Made by a program: the position numbers and the translations under genes
From: a virus
Lineage: Duplodnaviria; Heunggongvirae; Uroviricota; Caudoviricetes
Reading direction: 5' to 3' (one strand)
IMG/VR virus record: IMGVR_UViG_2778261179_000021
Span: 1-35,334 of that record
DNA: 35,334 nt
Notes under the pieces: model-generated
Told to the model about the DNA's origin: nothing
The model's database searches: none
The model's input: only the letters and a program-made list of their open reading frames with translations
Part shown: positions 2,964 through 33,882 of the stretch, in pieces
Layout: each line of letters opens with the position of its first letter
Position numbering within the stretch: the stretch's first letter is position 1

Positions 2964-2990
2964 AGGGACTCTTCGGAGTCCCTTTTTTAT
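2964..2990 (+). terminator. intrinsic terminator (AGGGACTC-TTCG-GAGTCCCT plus T6)
   Basis: 8-bp stem, TTCG loop, TTTTTT run; abuts the stop codon of the convergent minus-strand gene. Confidence 0.65.
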
Positions 2991-3928
2991 TGGCAGTAAG
3001 AAAAGTTAGTACCGTACATTTCATCATGAAGCATTGCAGCATTGCGTTTCTGTTCTTCTTCCTCGTCTACCGCATCACTAGAAAAATGAGATTTGCCCTT
3101 AAAAGAACGAAGCAATTGCAGTGCAGCCATCGGATCACGCATCACATCGATTTTCACTTCTACTTCATCATTTGCGGCCTCATCAGCCGCATTTTCAACT
3201 ACTGCCACCGGAGCAACTTCTTTAGCTTTCAGTTCTTCAATTTCAGCTTTCTGGGCTTCGATAATCTGGTCTTTTTCTTCCAGTGCAGCTTTCAGTTCTG
3301 CGATCTGTGCTTCCAGTGCAGCAAAGCGATCTTCTACAACAGGAGAAACAGCATTAACCTGTGCTTCCAGTTCCAGAAATGCTTCGCAAGATTCAATACG
3401 TTCTTTCTCTTCACCTTCATAAGCAACCAGTTCTACAACTTCTTTTTCGGTAGCGTGGCTGTTAAAGAATACAGCAAAGTAAGGATTGCCGGATTTAGTG
3501 AAGTTCAGTTTAGCTTTTCCGGTAACTTCTTTACGACGACCGAAGGTGATCTGGCAATCAGCGGTATCCTGAAAATCCATGTTAGGAGCGGAAACGATAG
3601 CAGTATCACCAGCAATCACCAGGTGGAACAGTTCAGAAGAGTTCTTAACGGTAAAGGTAACGATGTGGTCTACTGCAACGTCTTTAGCAGGTTTAACGCG
3701 GTCGATTGCTTTACGAATGCCGTTAGGCAGTTTACCGTCAACACCAAAGCCAGCCGCGATCAGTGCTTCACGATGTGCTTTAAAGCCAGCGAAAGCGGAT
3801 TTCTGCTGCGCAAAGGAAACATGAGCAACAACTTTCGGCTGAATCTTCTTGTTTGCTTCGGTGCCAAATTTGATAACTGCTTTAGCGTTGGTTACTTCGT
3901 TAGTGAAAAAGTTAGCGGAAAATAACAT
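2987..3928 (-). CDS. hypothetical protein with central coiled coil and acidic C-terminal region (313 aa)
   Basis: ATG at 3928 with GGAG RBS; long ORF; heptad-like region ...FAALEAQIAELKAALEEKDQIIEAQKAEIEELKAKE...; second gene of a leftward operon downstream of LexA-like boxes. Confidence 0.7.
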   Translation of the reverse strand: MLFSANFFTNEVTNAKAVIKFGTEANKKIQPKVVAHVSFAQQKSAFAGFKAHREALIAAGFGVDGKLPNGIRKAIDRVKPAKDVAVDHIVTFTVKNSSELFHLVIAGDTAIVSAPNMDFQDTADCQITFGRRKEVTGKAKLNFTKSGNPYFAVFFNSHATEKEVVELVAYEGEEKERIESCEAFLELEAQVNAVSPVVEDRFAALEAQIAELKAALEEKDQIIEAQKAEIEELKAKEVAPVAVVENAADEAANDEVEVKIDVMRDPMAALQLLRSFKGKSHFSSDAVDEEEEQKRNAAMLHDEMYGTNFSYCQ

Positions 3929-3970
3929 TATAAATACTCCTGTGGAAAGTTAGTTTTAATTGTTCATCGC

Positions 3971-4004
3971 AAAAGCCCCCTTGTTGCCGCAAGGGGGCTT
4001 TTTT
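3971..4004. terminator. bidirectional intrinsic terminator
   Basis: 9-bp perfect stem GCCCCCTTG/CAAGGGGGC flanked by AAAA on the left and TTTTTT on the right. Confidence 0.6.
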
Positions 4005-4042
4005 ATTTTTAAAGCCATCATATAATTCTCAGTCAAAGTTGA

Positions 4043-4222
4043 TTACCAAACGGTAGCTTCAATCTTCACTTTAATGTCATATCGTTTTAGCAGTTTTCTA
4101 AAATCAGAGGGGTCAATCCCTTCTTCCTTCAAAACCGCCAGCTTGTCACCCTGCATCGCTTCAAAATAACGTTTAGCAATCGGGAGTAATACTTCTCGTG
4201 TGAATCGTACAGGTTTAGCCAT
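4043..4222 (-). CDS. small HTH-module protein (59 aa), paralog of the 7412..7645 and 7675..8280 proteins
   Basis: Internal ATG at 4222 preceded by GAGGGA RBS (track ORF starts further upstream at 4282); motif PVRFTREV...EEGIDPSDFRKLLKRYDIKV...IEATVW is shared with the 77-aa protein (RFTKEQ...HGISIAQFYKNMKKLDIKF...IVEATGF). Confidence 0.55.
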   Translation of the reverse strand: MAKPVRFTREVLLPIAKRYFEAMQGDKLAVLKEEGIDPSDFRKLLKRYDIKVKIEATVW

Positions 4223-4320
4223 TTTTAATCCCTCATTGTTAGGTTTAAAAAATCTTAAAAAAGAGCTTTTCGCTCTGAACAATTCTATTTATAAAATGTT
4301 TTTCGAAAAACCCTGTAAAA

Positions 4321-4342
4321 CCACTGTATATCCGATCAGTGG
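4321..4342. promoter_or_regulatory. LexA-box-like inverted repeat (CCACTGTATATCCGATCAGTGG)
   Basis: CTG-N10-CAG with a consensus-like left half ACTGTATAT; lies immediately upstream of a candidate minus-strand -35 (TTTACA) for the 4222 gene. Confidence 0.4.
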
Positions 4343-4405
4343 GAGCACGAATTGCTAAAGAGAAGATTAATAATTAATCAATCCGTACAATATTCAACCG
4401 AAAAA

Positions 4406-4444
4406 GCACTGTATATCTAACCAGTGCTGTATGAGTTAACAGTG
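4406..4444. promoter_or_regulatory. two overlapping LexA-box-like sites, including TGCTGTATGAGTTAACAGTG (CTGT-N8-ACAG)
   Basis: 4406..4427 GCACTGTATATCTAACCAGTGC; 4425..4444 matches the SOS-box core CTGT-N8-ACAG with the left half CTGTATGAG as in the E. coli recA box. Confidence 0.5.
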
Positions 4445-4580
4445 AGTCAGGAGATTTTCAGAAGTGAACAATCATTTTTCATGCATGTATTTATACACGA
4501 AAAAATCATGCTTATCATCTATATGGGGATTGTTTGGAAAATTTCAACCCTTACCAGTGATAAAAAGTATAAAATAGTTC

Positions 4581-4594
4581 TTGACACATGTCAA
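4581..4594. promoter_or_regulatory. operator-like imperfect palindrome TTGACACATGTCAA overlapping a -35-like TTGACA
   Basis: Outer arms TTGAC/GTCAA perfectly symmetric; TTGACA hexamer at 4581..4586. Confidence 0.3.
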
Positions 4595-4790
4595 CAAACA
4601 TGATCTAAGCGAGAGGTGACTATCAAAATTTTTGTTTGAAAATGGTAGATTAGGATTATCAACCTTTATAATCTATTATGGCACGGAGACCTTTTGATGA
4701 TTCCTTTTAAATCATTAGATTACGCCACTTTTTGGTGATTTTTTGGTTAAATAATATACAATAATTTTCTATCAAAATATTTGATGGGAA

Positions 4791-4986
4791 TTGCCCCCGA
4801 AATTCTGAATTTTTGCCCCCGAACAAAATCCCAAGATTCTACTATCCTATTTTTGCCCCTGAAACCTACTATTTTTGCCCCTGAAATTCTGGGAAACAGT
4901 GATTTTGCCCCTCATTTTTGCCCCTGAAATGCCAATAATTGCCCCTGAAAATCTAATTTTTGCCCCTGAAATTTTCCCCCGAAAAG
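4791..4986 (+). repeat. iteron array: about 9 direct copies of TTTTTGCCCCTGAAA
   Basis: Cores at about 4793, 4815, 4855, 4877, 4907 (degenerate), 4920, 4941, 4962, 4976 (degenerate), all in the same orientation, with spacings of mostly 21-22 bp or multiples; inside a 1.4-kb region lacking credible ORFs. Confidence 0.8.
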
Positions 4987-5118
4987 GATTGGTGAGAAAA
5001 ACTCTTTATAAAACATTAACTTGGGTGGGGGTAAAGGCGGGGGATTCGGCGTGCATAGATATTATATAACACATTCGCTACGCTCATGTGTAAAACCAAA
5101 AATAACCAAAAAGATATT

Positions 5119-5138
5119 AGGAGGGCTTTGCCCGACTG
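5119..5138 (+). repeat. 20-bp direct repeat copy 1 (AGGAGGGCTTTGCCCGACTG)
   Basis: Matches 5508..5527 at 19 of 20 positions; contains internal GGGC...GCCC dyad. Confidence 0.75.
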
Positions 5139-5507
5139 CGCGAAGCGCTAACCAATTACTTCTAGTAACAACTAATTTAAACTAGATGATACTAGATGGT
5201 CTTAGAAGGAATTAACTAGTTTGCTCGCTCGCTTCGCTCACTCTCAAACGTCTGCGACGCCACTGCGTGGCATCGAGAATCACTTTTGAAAGGATTTTCT
5301 TAGAAAGGGATTTAATACTAGTTACTAACTGATTCTAGTAAACGAACGAAGTGAGTAACAATCACTTTCTAGAAAGGTATTGGTATCCCTTCGGGATTGC
5401 AACCTTCGGTTGCTAAATTGCTTCCTGATTATTATTTCTCCAAAAGAAAGATTCTTATATTCTAAAGATACTTCTTCGTTTTGATGATGATTTAATCAAA
5501 ACTATGA

Positions 5508-5527
5508 AGGAGGGCTATGCCCGACTG
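5508..5527 (+). repeat. 20-bp direct repeat copy 2 (AGGAGGGCTATGCCCGACTG)
   Basis: Matches 5119..5138 at 19 of 20 positions; 389 bp downstream of copy 1. Confidence 0.75.
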
Positions 5528-5612
5528 AATACAATCACCTTTCATAATAACAAGAATTTTCTCTTTATAAATAATATTAGATTGATTCACTTTCTTTTAG
5601 AGGATTTCCACT

Positions 5613-6080
5613 ATGAACCATAAAATGACTACCACTACTCCTTTCATCCTGTTAGGTTTTGATGCTGATAGCTTCCACAATGACAAGTTAATGAAGATGT
5701 TCCGTGAACGTGGTTATAACATCCTTTTCAATTCCGATGAATCTCATTTCTCTAGTGCATGGTATGCCTTCCACCGTGATAAGAAGCCGACCATTGTTGT
5801 TAACGTCTTCACCGATGAAGAACGCTTAAAGTACCAGAATCTACCAGCAATTATTGTTCGTGATGATCTTCCGTTTGAAGTCCGTTCCGGTGACATTGAC
5901 CTGGGTAGCTTCGTTACTGTCTATGAACTGGATGAAGCAATGTTTAACTACGGTAAAGAAACCGCTCAGGAAGCCCAAGAACACGATGAAGAGGATGAGG
6001 AAAACGAAGACTACGCACCAATCTGTTTCTCTTCTCAGAATGGCTTCTACGGTTACGATGAAGGCTTAGATATGCTGTAA
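5613..6080 (+). CDS. acidic hypothetical early protein (155 aa)
   Basis: AGAGGA RBS; ORF rich in D/E with an acidic C-terminal stretch EAQEHDEEDEENEDY; first plus-strand gene after the non-coding hub. Confidence 0.65.
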   Translation: MNHKMTTTTPFILLGFDADSFHNDKLMKMFRERGYNILFNSDESHFSSAWYAFHRDKKPTIVVNVFTDEERLKYQNLPAIIVRDDLPFEVRSGDIDLGSFVTVYELDEAMFNYGKETAQEAQEHDEEDEENEDYAPICFSSQNGFYGYDEGLDML

Positions 6081-6115
6081 GTTAGGTCAACCCTTTGGCG
6101 TCTTGTCAAGGGGTA

Positions 6116-6143
6116 TTGACAAAATTTTCTGACTTTTTATGAT
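6116..6143 (+). promoter_or_regulatory. sigma70-type promoter (TTGACA-16 nt-TATGAT)
   Basis: Consensus -35 TTGACA at 6116..6121 and -10 TATGAT at 6138..6143 with a 16-nt spacer, upstream of the 6202 and 6441 genes. Confidence 0.55.
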
Positions 6144-6201
6144 TATCGCACTTGACAACTTTGAACCTATTTGACCTAGATTTGTAAAGAGGATGTTAAT
6201 T

Positions 6202-6348
6202 ATGAACACTACTAAGAAAATTGATGGACGTAAAAACCCGAACCGCAAACCGTGGACCCCAAACCTGAATTTCTCAATGGTTGACTTCCATGAACGCCAG
6301 CGTCGCATTCAAGAAGAAATTGATCGCGCGATTGCTGAATCTAAATGA
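6202..6348 (+). CDS. small basic protein (48 aa)
   Basis: AAGAGGA RBS 7 nt upstream of ATG; translation MNTTKKIDGRKNPNRKPWTPNLNFSMVDFHERQRRIQEEIDRAIAESK; downstream of the strong promoter; absent from the track because shorter than 60 aa. Confidence 0.4.
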   Translation: MNTTKKIDGRKNPNRKPWTPNLNFSMVDFHERQRRIQEEIDRAIAESK

Positions 6349-6440
6349 GATAAAAATTTCTTTATAAATAAAATTGTTCCGGTGATGCTGCCGGAACTAG
6401 GAGGACCAAATCACTAAACCGTTTAAGGGGAATTTTTACT

Positions 6441-7271
6441 ATGAATACTGTTACTACTATGAATACTGCTGTTAAAACTGCTTCCGTGTCTCTGGTTGTT
6501 GATAACACCAAACCGCTGACCATGTCTACCCGTCAGATTGCTGAATTGACCGGAAAGAATCATAAGGATGTTATGCGTGATTTTCGTCGCATGATTGATT
6601 CTCTTGAAAAAGGAAGCGAATTAGCCGGGCGCAATTTTGCGCTGGGGTATTTTGTAGAATCTTCATATTTTGATAAGAATAATCAATCTCGCCCGATGTA
6701 TGAACTGGACGAAGATCTCTGTAATACTCTGGTTATGGGATACGATGCACCGCTTCGCTTCAAAATTGCTAAAGAATGGCGTTTGATGAAAGAAGGGAAA
6801 GCTAATGTTCCGGTTAATCCATATGAACACTTTGAAGAAACAGACTGGATCGAACTGGCGTTAAAGAAAACTCGCGAAAACAAACAACTGATTGAACTTC
6901 ATGTTCGTAAGTCTGTAGATAGCCATTCAATGACGCGTCTGTTAGGCGCTAAAAAGGGCGCTACGAAGGTTAAAGAAGCACTGACGGCCTTGCGTACTGC
7001 TGGATACATTGAGCGCGTCTATGATGAAAATAACAAGCCGTGTGGGTATGTTGCTAATGATTCCGCTTTACCGTTTTGCAGCATGAACGCTCACTATCAG
7101 CTTTCTTTTACTGTTGATGTGCTTCCGGTGTTGGTTGAATTTGGTGTTCTGGAAGAAGAACAAAAAGCAACTCTGAATCTTCCTAAGCCGAACAACACTA
7201 TTCTGATTCAAAATAAAGCGGCTGAACGTCTCCGTCAGAATGTTGGATCACTGGAAGTCTTCGGACTGTAA
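6441..7271 (+). CDS. Rha-family phage regulatory protein (antirepressor-like)
   Basis: N-terminal motif MSTRQIAELTGKNHKDVMRDFRRMIDSLEK is characteristic of the phage Rha domain; 276 aa; followed by an intrinsic terminator. Confidence 0.7.
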   Translation: MNTVTTMNTAVKTASVSLVVDNTKPLTMSTRQIAELTGKNHKDVMRDFRRMIDSLEKGSELAGRNFALGYFVESSYFDKNNQSRPMYELDEDLCNTLVMGYDAPLRFKIAKEWRLMKEGKANVPVNPYEHFEETDWIELALKKTRENKQLIELHVRKSVDSHSMTRLLGAKKGATKVKEALTALRTAGYIERVYDENNKPCGYVANDSALPFCSMNAHYQLSFTVDVLPVLVEFGVLEEEQKATLNLPKPNNTILIQNKAAERLRQNVGSLEVFGL

Positions 7272-7279
7272 TAATTTTT

Positions 7280-7305
7280 AGCCTCGCCTAGTGCGGGGCT
7301 TTTTC
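7280..7305 (+). terminator. intrinsic terminator after the Rha-like gene
   Basis: AGCCTCGC-CTAGT-GCGGGGCT hairpin (one G-U pair) followed by TTTTT. Confidence 0.55.
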
Positions 7306-7379
7306 ATACCTACATCACGCGACTTTTCGCGCCATCTTCCACCAACCCGCCGATGGCGTTTTGGACACCCTACAGATAC

Positions 7380-7403
7380 AAAAAAGCCACTCCGAAGAGT
7401 GGC
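7380..7403 (-). terminator. intrinsic terminator for the leftward HTH genes
   Basis: GCCACTC-CGAA-GAGTGGC hairpin preceded on the + strand by AAAAAA (a T-run on the minus strand). Confidence 0.55.
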
Positions 7404-7411
7404 AAAGAGAA

Positions 7412-7645
7412 TCAAAAACCTGTTGCTTCTACGATCTGACCATCACCGATCTGAACATAGAATTTAATGTCTAACTTCTTCATATTCTTATAGAATTGGG
7501 CGATTGAGATCCCATGTTCACTAAGAATCTGTTCTTTCGCTTCCTTACCACGATCCGCTGTATAGTAAGCGTAGGCAATATCAGCCATCTGTTCTTTAGT
7601 AAATCGTGCCGGACGACCGCGAGTAGCTTTAGTAGTCATAGTCAT
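7412..7645 (-). CDS. small HTH-module protein (77 aa), paralog of the 4043..4222 protein
   Basis: ATG at 7645 with GGAGAAA RBS (track ORF begins at an upstream GTG); TRGRPARFTKEQMADIA...HGISIAQFYKNMKKLDIKF resembles psq/resolvase-type HTH seen in phage DNA-binding proteins and some small terminases. Confidence 0.6.
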   Translation of the reverse strand: MTMTTKATRGRPARFTKEQMADIAYAYYTADRGKEAKEQILSEHGISIAQFYKNMKKLDIKFYVQIGDGQIVEATGF

Positions 7646-7674
7646 TTTCTCCAAATTAAAGTGAATGTTCACCT

Positions 7675-8280
7675 TTATTTAGAGGACTTAGATTTTATAG
7701 GAAAAAGTTCTCCATCGTCAACTGACATAAAGAACTCGACCTTAATCTCGTACTTCTTCAACCGTGAATAATATGTACCCCGACTTATATCAACCTTGCG
7801 AAGCACTTCAAAGAAGGATTTAGGATCGTTGTAATAGTGGCTGTACTTCACGTTAGCGAGTTCTACAAACAATTCCCTTGTATCACCATATCCTTTCTTA
7901 AAAGCTATGTTACGTGGCATTGTAATAGCCATATTATCCCTTGTCTGCTTCAACACTTCTCTGATCGGCTTCCACTGCAAACGATAGATAGGACCGTCAT
8001 CAATGCGATAATAACGCTTGATATCAAAATCAAACCAATCTCGGACTCTCCGAAACTCTGTATGTGATGTTCTATGCTTCTTAAAGAAGTTGTGAACGTC
8101 TCTATAGCCATTATCACGGTAAAATTCTATTAAAATCTCTTTCGCTTCCTCACGGCTAAACCCAGATGTTGTGTAATCGGTCTTTAAGTGCTTATGTTTT
8201 ACTGGCAAACGATATTCATGATCGGTACAACAAGACAAGGCTAATTCTACTTCATCTCTTTGTTGCTGATTAATTAGCAT
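7675..8280 (-). CDS. protein with two tandem HTH-like modules related to the small HTH paralogs (201 aa)
   Basis: ATG at 8280 with AAGGGGG RBS; internal duplication (…FFKKHRTSHTEFRRVRDWFDFDIKRYY… and …FFEVLRKVDISRGTYYSRLKKYEIKVEFF); transcribed divergently from the large terminase gene. Confidence 0.65.
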   Translation of the reverse strand: MLINQQQRDEVELALSCCTDHEYRLPVKHKHLKTDYTTSGFSREEAKEILIEFYRDNGYRDVHNFFKKHRTSHTEFRRVRDWFDFDIKRYYRIDDGPIYRLQWKPIREVLKQTRDNMAITMPRNIAFKKGYGDTRELFVELANVKYSHYYNDPKSFFEVLRKVDISRGTYYSRLKKYEIKVEFFMSVDDGELFPIKSKSSK

Positions 8281-8367
8281 ACAACCCCCTTAAATCTTAA
8301 TACCCGTATTTATCAAAATATCAACAATTTAATAAATACCTTCATATTTCGTAATGAGGGTAATTAC

Positions 8368-10272
8368 ATGAAACTGATTTCGAACAAGGCCAAATTAAAA
8401 AAGATTCTCAGAAATGTTTCTGCTGCAATTCGCCCACCTAAAGCGATGAAACCTAGTGAATGGGTAGAGGCTAATGTAGTTGCAACCGATGGTGTTAAAG
8501 CCGGATCTCTTATTAAATTGCATCACTTCCAACGTGGGATGATGGACGCGATTACCGAAGATAAGCGAAAGATTGTCATGAAATGCTCGGCGCAGTTGGG
8601 TAAAACTATGGTGCTCAACGGTATTATCTTTCACAGGATCGCCACCAATCCAACCAATATAGGTGTTTTACAAGCGAACGTTCGAGAATTGAACTCATGG
8701 ATCGCGGGTAAGGTGAAGCCAGTATTAGAGGCAACCCCAGAATTAAAGGCGATGATCACCGACAAATCGGATCGCAATGCCGTTAATAACACATCGCAGA
8801 TACAGCTTAGAAATGGGTCGTTTCTTTATTTCATGTCATTGAATAGTCCATCCCATCTCCGGGGTAAGACTTTGCCGTTGATCCTTGCAGACGAGGTGGA
8901 TGGTTGCGACGAATCAGACGAAGGGAACCCGATCCAGCTAGCGGAACAACGTGCTTCCACTTTCGGGGAAGATGCAAGGATCGTAATTGCTTCTACTCCA
9001 ACGTCGCGGGATGGGGCGATAAACCAACAATACGAACTCTCAGATAAACGAAAATACTATGTTCCATGCCAGCATTGCGGACACCGACACGTAATGGAAT
9101 GGAGTAACGTTCATTTCGATTGGCATCAAGTTAACGGTAAATCACTGCCTAACCCAGATACAGCCGTTTATCGTTGCCCGTCATGTGAAACTGATTGGAC
9201 AGAAGGGGATCGCCTACGTGCTGTTGCTAAGGGAGAATGGATCGCCACCGAACCTAATGCGGAAGTAATCGGTTTTCATGCTAACCGCCTTATGTCTCCG
9301 TTTAGTTCTATCCGTGCGTGTGTGGTGGATTTTGCTGATAGCTACGCGAATATGTCACTGGCAACGTTCTATAACACTGTCTTAGGTGAAACCTTCGATG
9401 ATCTTAACGAAGACCGCACAGCCGACGAACTGGAAACGCTGAAAACTGACATTAGCCTAGACAACATCCCCGATGATGTTCTGGCTCTGGTTGGTGGTGT
9501 TGACCAGCAAAAAGACCGTCTGGAATCTACCTTGCTGGGTATTTCTCGTAAAGGGCTATGCGTAGTTGATCACCGATCATTCTATGATGTGAACTGCGAA
9601 CGCCACGAATCGCCAGCATACAGCCAGCTTTACAACTTCCTGAAAGCGAAATTCTATACCCGATCCGGTCAACGAATCCCAATGCTATCTGCTTTCGTGG
9701 ACTCATCAAACGGACGAGCTACGCAAGTGATCTACCGATTCTGCACACAATGGCAAAACCTAACAGCCATTAAAGGGGCAAGCAATGTTGATGCACCAAT
9801 CCTTCCGGTAAAAGACACAAGAACGGGCGGTTTTACTCTCAAAATTCTGGGCGTAAACAACCTTAAGACGATGATCCGTGAAATGATTAACCGGAACTTG
9901 AGAGATGGCGATCCTCACACTGTTTTCCAGATTGGCGACGTTCCTGATGACTATTGCGAGCAATTGCTTTCTGAACAGTTGAAACGGCAGGGTAATACCA
10001 CACGTTGGGTAAAAGTTGGTCAGCAACGAAACGAGGCGCTCGACTGCCTGGCTTATTCCTATGCTGCTTCTCGCCATGTACTCAATAAAATGTCATGGGA
10101 AAAACTCGAAGCCATCAAAGATAGTTTGAACCGTGAACCAGAAGAATCCGTAGAAGCTCCTAAATCGCAATCTGACGAGAAAATAGAAGAAACTAAGCCA
10201 ATCACACGACCACAACGTCAAAACATCGCCAGACGCCCAAATAGAGGCCGTAGCTGGGTAACATCGTTCTAA
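8368..10272 (+). CDS. terL: terminase large subunit, lambda GpA family
   Basis: 634 aa; by-eye matches to lambda gpA landmarks: SAQLGKT Walker-like segment, zinc-ribbon-like PCQHCGH...RCPSCETDW, FYNTVLGETFD (lambda FVNTTLGETWE), QRNEALDCLAYSYAA (lambda RRNEALDCFVYALAA). Confidence 0.85.
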   Translation: MKLISNKAKLKKILRNVSAAIRPPKAMKPSEWVEANVVATDGVKAGSLIKLHHFQRGMMDAITEDKRKIVMKCSAQLGKTMVLNGIIFHRIATNPTNIGVLQANVRELNSWIAGKVKPVLEATPELKAMITDKSDRNAVNNTSQIQLRNGSFLYFMSLNSPSHLRGKTLPLILADEVDGCDESDEGNPIQLAEQRASTFGEDARIVIASTPTSRDGAINQQYELSDKRKYYVPCQHCGHRHVMEWSNVHFDWHQVNGKSLPNPDTAVYRCPSCETDWTEGDRLRAVAKGEWIATEPNAEVIGFHANRLMSPFSSIRACVVDFADSYANMSLATFYNTVLGETFDDLNEDRTADELETLKTDISLDNIPDDVLALVGGVDQQKDRLESTLLGISRKGLCVVDHRSFYDVNCERHESPAYSQLYNFLKAKFYTRSGQRIPMLSAFVDSSNGRATQVIYRFCTQWQNLTAIKGASNVDAPILPVKDTRTGGFTLKILGVNNLKTMIREMINRNLRDGDPHTVFQIGDVPDDYCEQLLSEQLKRQGNTTRWVKVGQQRNEALDCLAYSYAASRHVLNKMSWEKLEAIKDSLNREPEESVEAPKSQSDEKIEETKPITRPQRQNIARRPNRGRSWVTSF

Positions 10273-24107: not shown

Positions 24108-24110
24108 TTA

Positions 24111-24156
24111 AAAGCCCCCATAGTCATAAATAATCATAAAACTATGGGGGCTTTTC
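24111..24156 (+). terminator. intrinsic terminator (long-stem hairpin) after the tape measure gene
   Basis: AGCCCCCATAGT ... ACTATGGGGGCT 12-bp stem with 16-nt loop followed by TTTT. Confidence 0.5.
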
Positions 24157-30870: not shown

Positions 30871-30908
30871 TCAATAAATACCCTCATAGAATCTTATGGG
30901 GGTATAAC

Positions 30909-32153: not shown

Positions 32154-33833
32154 TTAAATTCCAAATTCTTGTAATGGACCTGGTATTTCTTCTTCTGGTT
32201 TCCAGTTCTTATCTGTCAGCATGTCTAAACATGGATGCAGAACAAGCCCGTTACTCTCCAGAATCTGCCTATCATTGATAGTCTTCAAATCAACGAAGAT
32301 CCGGCCTTTCCTCGGTCCTCTTGAATTTTCTATTACAACTCTCTGGGTCTTGCCATCGATGTATTCCAGTACAAACAAGTTTTTGTACTTGTCAATCCTG
32401 CTACACCCGATCCGTTTTAGAGCTTGCTTAATCTTAAACCGGACCTTAATGCGATCCTCGTTGTAAACATCTTCTAAATCAAATTCTACGAGCTTCTCCC
32501 AGCCTTGAGAGTCAACAGAATACATTTCCTCTTCTGCCATCTTAATTTGATTGTAGAGTGTTTCACGCTCGCTATTGAGGGTAGTAATCTGATCGGCTAG
32601 CTCCTTCGTTGCTCCTGTCATAGCAGAAAGGGTAATCAGGTTATCAATCTTGCGTGATATTTCATCAATCTGTACTTTCAAAGCCGGAACCGGATTAGCC
32701 TTATCTTCAGCAATCCAGATTTTATCAGCCAGCAATTGCAATACAGCTTTCTCTAATTGGTCGCCGCGAAAACTCCAGTTTGTATGCACACATTCAATAC
32801 GACTAGAGCGCATTGCATCGCATGAATAACGATATTGGTTAGGCCGTCTGTTTGTTCCTTTCACCTTAACCATAGCGGAACCGCAATGTTCACATTTCAA
32901 TAGACCAACACCACTAAGCAAGGGAATAGGTTTAACTTCTTCTTTGTCTCCAAAGTTACATGCTCTAACACCAATGCTTTTCTTAAGGTGATAAAACTCA
33001 GCGTCATCTAGCACACGAGGATAATAATCCTTTAACTCATACTTAACGCCATCTACAGAGATTTCCTTGATACCAATCAAAGCGCGGGTATGGAACAACC
33101 TTTCAATCATTGCCCGTGACCAGTTTGAATGCCTCTTGTGACTTGCGGCTGGTGGTGGTGTGTATGTCGCGTTAAGGTGATCCAGTATCTCGGCGGTTGA
33201 CCGTCCATTCCTGCGTAATTCCACAACTTCCTGAACAATAGGGAAGAAGACCGGATGAGGAAGCACATAACCAGATGTGGTATCAGTCCACCACATATTC
33301 TTTCCAATTTCCTCGATTGCAACAGCCGGATTTTGTGGATTTTCTTGATGAGCTTTAATCTTAATCAGTGCGCTTGAGTTAGTACGATTGCGCTTAGTCT
33401 GGCTTTCCTCATTACCACGGATGAATAAAAGGATGGAGAACATCAGGTCCATCGGGTTAGCGGTAACAGTATCCAGCGAGTAGATCTTGTTATCCATGCC
33501 AGTAACAATGGTTATCCCCCTACGGATGATTGAAAGGAATAACTCCTGCGCACTGACAATATCGGCACGGGATAAACGGTCCAAGTTTTCGATGAATAGC
33601 CAGCTACCAACAGGAACGGATCTACCTATTGCATCAAGGAAACGAGATAGCGCCCCTGTTTTGGAGTTAGCACCCTTAAACGCAGATACACCCAGATCCT
33701 GATAATCATTTACCAGTTCAAGGTCATACTTTACCGCAATCTCTCTAGCCATCCTGATTTGTCGTTCATAACTCGAACCATCATTCTGACGCATAGACGA
33801 GAAGCGAATATACGAATACAGTTTAGTTTTCAT
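32154..33833 (-). CDS. large serine recombinase (probable integrase)
   Basis: 559 aa from ATG 33833 (track start is an upstream TTG); N-terminal resolvase-type catalytic domain with YIRFSSMRQ (serine nucleophile) and …ENLDRLSR…; C-terminal extension with zinc-ribbon-like cysteines (CEHCGS…YRYSCD) and a coiled coil. Confidence 0.9.
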   Translation of the reverse strand: MKTKLYSYIRFSSMRQNDGSSYERQIRMAREIAVKYDLELVNDYQDLGVSAFKGANSKTGALSRFLDAIGRSVPVGSWLFIENLDRLSRADIVSAQELFLSIIRRGITIVTGMDNKIYSLDTVTANPMDLMFSILLFIRGNEESQTKRNRTNSSALIKIKAHQENPQNPAVAIEEIGKNMWWTDTTSGYVLPHPVFFPIVQEVVELRRNGRSTAEILDHLNATYTPPPAASHKRHSNWSRAMIERLFHTRALIGIKEISVDGVKYELKDYYPRVLDDAEFYHLKKSIGVRACNFGDKEEVKPIPLLSGVGLLKCEHCGSAMVKVKGTNRRPNQYRYSCDAMRSSRIECVHTNWSFRGDQLEKAVLQLLADKIWIAEDKANPVPALKVQIDEISRKIDNLITLSAMTGATKELADQITTLNSERETLYNQIKMAEEEMYSVDSQGWEKLVEFDLEDVYNEDRIKVRFKIKQALKRIGCSRIDKYKNLFVLEYIDGKTQRVVIENSRGPRKGRIFVDLKTINDRQILESNGLVLHPCLDMLTDKNWKPEEEIPGPLQEFGI

Positions 33834-33846
33834 ACCATTTCCAAAC

Positions 33847-33882
33847 AAAAACGCCCCTACCGCGTATTATAACGATAGGGGC
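33847..33882 (-). terminator. putative intrinsic terminator between the secreted-protein gene and the recombinase
   Basis: GCCCCTA ... TAGGGGC 7-bp stem with 16-nt loop, preceded on the + strand by AAAAA. Confidence 0.35.

Follow-up and report, generated by a model that had tools for sequence, protein, structure and literature searches.

How does a prophage with no recognizable CI/Cro, Q or replication genes control its own transcription? The question is raised by a stretch of 35,334 bp (the window; IMG/VR virus record IMGVR_UViG_2778261179_000021), which is a complete Escherichia coli prophage inserted in the antitoxin gene hicB after codon ~102, and in which three leftward genes encode proteins of 59, 77 and 201 amino acids (aa). 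A first-pass annotation of the window had described the three products as paralogues sharing one small helix-turn-helix (HTH) module, and had suggested either that they form a regulatory circuit or that one of them is the true small terminase subunit. Our analysis establishes that the three genes contain four homologous copies of one ~60-residue module. Judged by their sequences, these 'hypothetical proteins' constitute a new, lineage-restricted winged-HTH family built on a previously unclassified module, and the odds tilt slightly towards their being the element's own transcription regulators.

All three leftward open reading frames (ORFs) lie where they had been placed, are conserved, and are called by RefSeq in related E. 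coli prophages as hypothetical proteins of 59, 75 and ~200 aa; the true start of the 77-aa ORF is probably its second ATG, at 7639, which gives 75 aa and agrees with ribosome-binding site (RBS) spacing and with the homologues. The sequence motifs quoted earlier as common to the 59- and 77-aa proteins were found, and pairwise alignment by BLASTP gave significant similarity: the 59- and 77-aa proteins matched with E 2e-11 at 38% identity, the 77-aa protein matched the two halves of the 201-aa protein with E 2e-6 and 4e-5, and the 59-aa protein matched the C-terminal half of the 201-aa protein with E 6e-4. We then assembled family alignments from homologues of each protein and compared the resulting profiles with HHalign, which supported all six pairs among the 59-aa protein, the 77-aa protein and the two halves of the 201-aa protein (probability 83–98%, E 9e-6 to 8e-13). 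Paralogy, with the module doubled in the 201-aa protein, is thus upheld. Homologues of the 59-aa protein, 59–61 aa long, occur in E. coli, Salmonella, Providencia and Proteus, and the alignment of the 201-aa family comprises 22 sequences with identity down to 50% and a length of ~200 aa in all. The three proteins are all basic (isoelectric point (pI) 9.3–9.6).

Structure prediction with AlphaFold2 gave the same helices and hairpin for each module in the 77- and 201-aa models. In the 77-aa model (predicted local distance difference test (pLDDT) score 82.7), helices at residues 17–29, 34–43 and 48–57 are followed by strands at 63–66 and 70–73, and the 201-aa model (pLDDT 72.6) consists of two repeats of three helices plus a hairpin; the fold predicted for the module is the tri-helical HTH. 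Alignment of the 59- and 77-aa proteins places an 8-residue deletion in the wing hairpin of the former. The families also differ in what they conserve. Within the 77-aa family the segment EHGISIAQFYK and the N-terminal RGRP are invariant in all relatives, down to 56% overall identity, whereas the helices that match the 77-aa recognition helix, and the arm, vary in the 59- and 201-aa families.

Scans of the three proteins against Pfam and PHROGs returned nothing above threshold, a sequence search of the PDB with the module profile returned nothing meaningful, and Foldseek against predicted viral structures returned nothing significant. A profile search of 1.84 billion representative proteins retrieved only 17 proteins, which fall into two groups. 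One is the family itself, in Escherichia, Shigella, Salmonella, Proteus, Providencia and Edwardsiella. The other comprises long proteins of uncultured bacteria, from metagenome-assembled genomes (MAGs), with 5–9 tandem repeats of ~50 aa that match the module profile with E 5e-12 to 6e-4 and pass the Pfam models HTH_23, HTH_28, HTH_Tnp_1 and HTH_7. HHalign of the module against 43 of these MAG repeat units gave a probability of 97.3% and E 2e-11, spanning helix 2, the turn and helix 3. Because these multi-repeat relatives pass transposase/resolvase-type models, we conclude from sequence and predicted structure that the module should be counted among the transposase/resolvase-type HTH domains as a divergent, winged form, on the strength of a transitive link and its fold and not of direct membership. 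The multi-repeat proteins (P0069–P0080, from outside the window) are 320–980 aa long and are the nearest relatives of the module outside the prophage family; one of them, from a Clostridium sp. MAG, is annotated merely as 'helix-turn-helix domain-containing protein'.

The family is as restricted as had been proposed, with no member in the phage or plasmid collections. No match to the 201- and 77-aa proteins was found by tblastn in 50,697 phage records, and none to the 201-aa protein in 72,556 plasmids; the 201-aa family was also absent from the GTDB species-representative genomes when these were scanned for it. At the DNA level the early region (4000–8400) had no megablast match in the same phage records, and it matched 58 of 5,426 complete E. 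coli genomes (~1%), on the chromosome every time. The prophage lineage is also present in Salmonella, Shigella, Proteus, Providencia and Edwardsiella, and a literature search found no description of this prophage.

Where these genes lie bears on what they do. For comparison we used six related prophage loci (L001–L006) and 33 IMG/VR loci, exploiting their mosaic structure for co-variation tests. Gene order is kept in E. coli, Salmonella and Proteus prophages even with proteins down to 50% identity: terL, the large terminase gene, diverges from the 201-aa gene, which is followed by the 77-aa gene, a variable Rha region, a gene of ~150–155 aa, 1.3–1.4 kb of non-coding DNA, and the 59- and 313-aa genes. 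The 77- and 201-aa genes had been described as flanking the Rha gene; they are in fact adjacent to one another, both to the right of Rha and convergent with it. Rha is the only other regulator-like gene of the prophage and is replaced in the Proteus relative, and Pfam and PHROG scans of all non-structural ORFs revealed no other repressor-like protein. The 87-bp divergent region reported between the 201-aa gene and terL was confirmed at its original coordinates, and it is almost invariant among prophages whose 201-aa proteins are just 50–67% identical. The LexA-like boxes reported near the 59-aa gene are likewise real: two lie 100–200 nt upstream of its start, where 0.04 would be expected by chance. 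Box 1 is kept in L001, L003 and L005, reading CTGT-N8-ACAG there, and is absent from L002 and L004. Taken together, the two boxes recur in many, though not all, of the relatives. With SOS boxes at one end and a highly conserved divergent region facing terL at the other, the view that the module genes occupy control points holds.

A short motif links these positions to the rest of the prophage. The window contains 11 copies of the heptamer ATAAATA. Its 4.3 kb of non-coding DNA holds them all, whereas the 31 kb of coding DNA has none (6.9 ± 2.8 expected from codon shuffles, P = 0.002), and 9 of the 11 lie 15–80 nt upstream of a start on the same strand, as against 21.5% of other A5T2 heptamers (p = 3.6e-5). 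The genes so preceded are those for the TerS-like (small terminase) protein, the 59-aa, 155-aa, Rha and 201-aa proteins, terL, two late genes and the integrase operon. The motif is retained at orthologous promoters in all relatives, Proteus included. No −35 element was detectable across 49 instances, conservation being limited to TT-ATAAATA, and a fuller, T4-late-like form, TATAAATA, occurs in three cases. The motif resembles the T4 late promoter, and the prophage has no gp55/gp33 homologue; an analysis of phage rV5 has noted a comparable puzzle (PMC3606486). ATAAATA is thus a −35-less, promoter-like motif that marks every transcription unit, and a candidate target of the three proteins. Two of its copies, at 8307–8313 (−) and 8332–8338 (+), stand inverted and 18 bp apart within the 87-bp region.

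On these grounds we give slightly better than even chances to the reading that the three proteins are a prophage-specific family of small, basic, winged-HTH DNA-binding proteins that act as the element's own transcription regulators. A regulatory circuit is the best reading because the genes sit at control points and no other repressor can be recognized. Transcription of the 201–77 operon and of the late (terL) operon would start from the two back-to-back elements, and, if these are −10 elements, the promoters would overlap and so probably be mutually exclusive. The 201- and 77-aa products would control that switch, either by maintenance repression of the late operon together with autoregulation or by late activation. 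Since EHGISIAQFYK and RGRP are invariant in the 77-aa family, this protein, with its unchanging recognition helix and minor-groove-type arm, would be the best candidate reader of a conserved DNA element, namely the invariant, AT-rich ATAAATA; the other proteins may have variable targets or none. In the 201-aa protein two modules would be joined as a covalent pseudo-dimer whose recognition helices vary. The 59-aa protein, the early, SOS-triggered member, would be made after DNA damage on LexA cleavage, alongside the 313-aa protein that is predicted to bind the iterons; it may bind DNA itself or, given the truncated wing, act by disturbing the two longer paralogues.

Several observations weigh against this reading. 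Among related loci the 59- and 201-aa sequence types are found in all combinations, and this free assortment argues against a tightly co-evolving repressor/antirepressor pair, a candidate that we rejected. The part of the earlier proposal that finds support is regulation itself, which fits the synteny, the LexA boxes and the 87-bp region; the pairing of repressor with antirepressor is unconfirmed. No DNA element was found that co-varies with the 59-aa or 201-aa types among related loci, and the terL-proximal and 5100–5560 regions yielded none that follows the 201-aa type. The LexA boxes upstream of the 59-aa gene are absent from L002, L004 and ~12 IMG/VR loci, so SOS control is not universal. 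The module also reaches no curated HTH threshold, the sub-threshold Pfam hits (HTH_7, E 0.059; HTH_Tnp_1, E 0.099) being confined to 2 of 16 members.

Of the other explanations, the one closest to regulation is that one or more members, likeliest the 201- or 77-aa protein, are promoter-specificity factors for the −35-less ATAAATA promoters, whether sigma-like or RNA-polymerase appropriators/activators in the manner of gp55/gp33. The confinement of the motif to non-coding DNA, its placement ahead of starts, its conservation at orthologous promoters and the missing −35 all speak for such a factor, as does the fact that the prophage encodes neither an RNA polymerase nor a recognizable sigma factor. 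Yet no homology to gp55 was seen: when the 201-aa family was compared by HHalign with a single T4 gp55 sequence the probability was 0.1%, in what is a weak, profile-versus-single-sequence comparison. The hit of the 59-aa protein to the gp33 family (Pfam Trans_coact) is sub-threshold (E 0.029; 14.6 bits, where the cut-off is 25), and the weak sigma matches are generic to HTH proteins. Moreover, the factor's own promoter would carry the motif, so that in a naive infected cell some transcription would have to come from the host alone; binding of an HTH to duplex DNA at a −10 element suits a repressor better than an activator; and the motif could be an unusually uniform sigma-70 −10 variant. We regard this explanation as unlikely. 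We think equally improbable a broader scheme in which the whole transcription programme runs on −35-less ATAAATA promoters with the three proteins as its dedicated machinery, the 77-aa protein reading the motif either as a global silencer or, jointly with the 201-aa protein, as a specificity factor of a new kind that directs host RNA polymerase to promoters, and the SOS-induced 59-aa protein flipping the system.

Co-variation decided most of what remained. The position of the 201- and 77-aa genes directly beside terL, the frequency of N-terminal (winged) HTH domains in small terminases, and the lack of a co-oriented upstream partner for terL would fit a small terminase subunit or a cos-binding packaging accessory. 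However, a separate 184-aa protein matches PHROG 57 'terminase small subunit' with E 6e-11, the three proteins have no terminase profile match in Pfam or PHROGs, the 201- and 77-aa genes are divergent from terL, and L002 and L003 share a 100% identical 201/77 pair while their TerL proteins have only 59% identity. The earlier suggestion that one member is the true small terminase is accordingly rejected, and we hold any packaging role to be very unlikely. Much the same low standing attaches to the proposal that the serine integrase has its recombination directionality factor (RDF, excisionase) among the three, with the SOS-controlled 59-aa protein as the foremost candidate. Several known serine-integrase RDFs are very small and basic, SOS-timed expression would fit excision, and in the first six loci three 59-aa types appeared to match three integration sites, but the match dissolved with more loci. 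In L001 the integrase gene matches that of the window at 99.9% DNA identity and the hicB insertion site is shared, yet the 59-aa type differs (47% identity); ~55 E. coli genomes have this integrase and only 4 have this 59-aa gene type; and prophages at different sites can have identical 201/77 pairs. The 59-aa type does not follow integrase or attachment site, and the RDF candidate was dropped. Least credible of all, to the point of being nearly negligible, is that the three are replication accessory proteins binding the iteron array at 4791–4985. In its favour, the 59- and 313-aa genes are transcribed together and the former neighbours the iterons; against this, the iterons do not co-vary with the 59-, 77- or 201-aa types, and L002 has the iterons of the window and a 313-aa protein 99% identical to its counterpart there, with identities of 60% between the 59-aa and 50% between the 201-aa proteins. 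Iteron binding by these proteins was rejected, since the iterons follow the 313-aa protein. The iteron reads TTTCAGGGGCAAAAA in the window and TAGTGTAGGG or CTAGGGATG in relatives, and its type tracks that of the 313-aa protein without exception in ~35 loci; because of this perfect co-variation the 313-aa protein is likely, though without a family match, to be the iteron-binding replication initiator.

Table 1. Coordinates of the module genes and of associated features in the window.
Feature	Position	Strand	Basis or remark
59-aa protein; one module, hairpin cut down to a single strand, pI 9.6; first gene of the 59–313 operon	4043..4222	-	ORF, alignment
77-aa protein; invariant N-terminal RGRP arm, three-helix HTH, beta-hairpin wing	7412..7645	-	ORF, AlphaFold2
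201-aa protein; ~35-aa N-terminal extension, then two tandem modules	7675..8280	-	ORF, AlphaFold2
N-terminal module of 201-aa protein, residues ~36–106	7963..8175	-	BLASTP, AlphaFold2, HHalign
C-terminal module of 201-aa protein, residues ~130–198	7687..7893	-	BLASTP, AlphaFold2, HHalign
ATAAATA, 11 copies	1685, 3930, 4292(-), 4494(-), 5567, 6364, 8313(-), 8332, 24126, 30874, 34357(-)	+ unless marked	Motif search
Divergent control region, 87 bp, 201-aa gene/terL	8281..8367		Two inverted ATAAATA elements
LexA (SOS) box 1, CACTGTATATCCGATCAGTG	4322-4341		Motif search
LexA (SOS) box 2, CACTGTATATCTAACCAGTG	4407-4426		Motif search
ATAAATA promoter-like element of 59-aa gene, invariant in 6/6 aligned relatives	4286..4292	-	Motif search, alignment
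Terminator-like hairpin and T-run in leader, between ATAAATA element and RBS of 59-aa gene	4262..4276	-	Terminator search
Intrinsic-terminator-like hairpin closing the 201–77 operon	7386..7403	-	Terminator search
Terminator on the Rha side of the convergent junction	7280-7300	+	Terminator search
313-aa coiled-coil protein	2987-3928	-	Second gene of the 59–313 operon
Iteron array	4791-4985		Repeat TTTCAGGGGCAAAAA
Nu1-like TerS candidate, 184 aa	1722-2276	+	PHROG 57 'terminase small subunit', E 6e-11
Large serine recombinase (integrase)	32154-33848	-	Scan of non-structural ORFs
RBS hairpin at terL, CCTTCAT...ATGAGGG	8339-8360	+	RBS in 3′ arm
RBS hairpin at gene starting 30909, CCCTCATA...TATGGGGG	30881-30902	+	RBS in 3′ arm
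RBS hairpin at gene starting 24158, CCCCCATAG...CTATGGGGG	24110-24155	+	RBS in 3′ arm

The control region of the 59-aa gene holds further elements (Table 1). The leader hairpin at 4262–4276 has a stem conserved in all relatives and a variable loop; it may act as an attenuator or terminate a transcript that begins upstream, near 4480–4560. A near-consensus sigma-70 promoter (TTGACA-17-TATACT) at 4566–4594 (−) points leftward to the LexA boxes and is conserved in L001 and L003, its −35 sitting within the palindrome TTGACATGTGTCAA. A candidate antisense small RNA of ~70 nt (3927–4012, +) runs opposite to the 313- and 59-aa genes in the gap that separates them; in it, ATAAATA at 3930–3936 is followed by a strong terminator with a T-run at 3971–4002, and this layout is kept in relatives. 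At terL and at the genes starting 30909 and 24158, ATAAATA stands directly before, or is enclosed in, a hairpin with the RBS in its 3′ arm.

Between the iterons and the 155-aa gene a long non-coding stretch (~5100–5560, +) is conserved across relatives. Its hairpins are short and GC-rich, with stems that change with full compensation between the window and L005: ATCCC-TTC-GGGAT and GCAACC-TTC-GGTTGC in the former become TCCGC-TTC-GCGGA and GGATGC-TAC-GCATCC in the latter. The stretch also holds an imperfect inverted repeat of ~120 nt. Rfam scans of the whole window gave no family match, this stretch included, and RNAalifold gave only modest covariation for it; it may give rise to a structured RNA or serve as a single-strand origin element.

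The N terminus of the 184-aa TerS candidate is Nu1-like, and a sub-threshold match to Phage_Nu1 was obtained with the Proteus orthologue; against lambda Nu1 the candidate is collinear in BLASTP with a non-significant E of 0.32, so that its assignment rests on the PHROG hit. It is encoded 6 kb from terL, with the whole early region between, and its type does not track that of TerL, which is of the lambda gpA type and 44% identical to its best match in a cultured phage. As for the ends of the prophage, the hicB junction lies within positions 1–351, with HicB residues 1–102 encoded at 22–327, and in a related E. coli genome the remaining 3′ part of hicB is found just beyond the position of the window's last gene. 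Relatives are inserted at other sites, including ycdX, a PHP-domain gene.

In conclusion, the regulatory proteins of this prophage seem to consist of one unclassified HTH module in four copies, and their targets, once worked out, would define a new temperate-phage switch. They may also explain a uniform, −35-less promoter type that resembles T4 late promoters and occurs without gp55/gp33. If they are ordinary repressors the gain is modest, three hypothetical proteins being annotated as a new HTH family; if they do read the ATAAATA promoters, the finding would be considerably more interesting.

Each facet of the system has a partial counterpart elsewhere. Lambda gpNu1 is likewise a winged HTH in a phage with a gpA-type TerL, but here the Nu1-like protein is a different gene. 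T4 late promoters have the sequence TATAAATA and are used via gp55/gp33; the prophage has a similar promoter-like element without a detectable −35. Unlike T4, it has no gp55/gp33 homologue, is temperate and siphovirus-like, and carries the motif ahead of early, regulatory and late units alike. LexA-controlled small phage regulators or antirepressors are known from coliphage 186 (Tum) and Gifsy-type phages, which the 59-aa gene resembles as a small gene behind LexA boxes in a prophage without a cleavable CI-type repressor; it differs in having no sequence similarity to them, in being an HTH paralogue of two other proteins of the prophage, and in its type not co-varying with the 201/77 pair.

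For the module itself, the nearest parallels are the HTH domains of transposases and resolvases (the C-terminal domains of Hin and gamma-delta resolvase, the N-terminal domains of IS3 and IS630), with which it shares the three-helix HTH and the pattern '...G-I-S-x-x-T/F-Y-x-x-h-K-K...'. The 77-aa protein also has a basic arm, RGRP, similar to the one (GRPR) with which Hin contacts the minor groove. HHalign of the family profiles against single sequences of Hin and Sf6 gp1 was not significant, a profile-versus-single-sequence comparison being a weak one. Unlike those proteins, the three are stand-alone, consisting of modules only without a catalytic domain, and the prophage module adds a C-terminal beta-hairpin wing. 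The best structural matches of the 201-aa model were to bipartite tandem-HTH domains (Tc3/paired, CENP-B, Myb R2R3 and MarA/SoxS), and the 201-aa protein likewise comprises two HTH modules and a basic linker; unlike them, its modules are winged and paralogous to free-standing proteins of the same genome.

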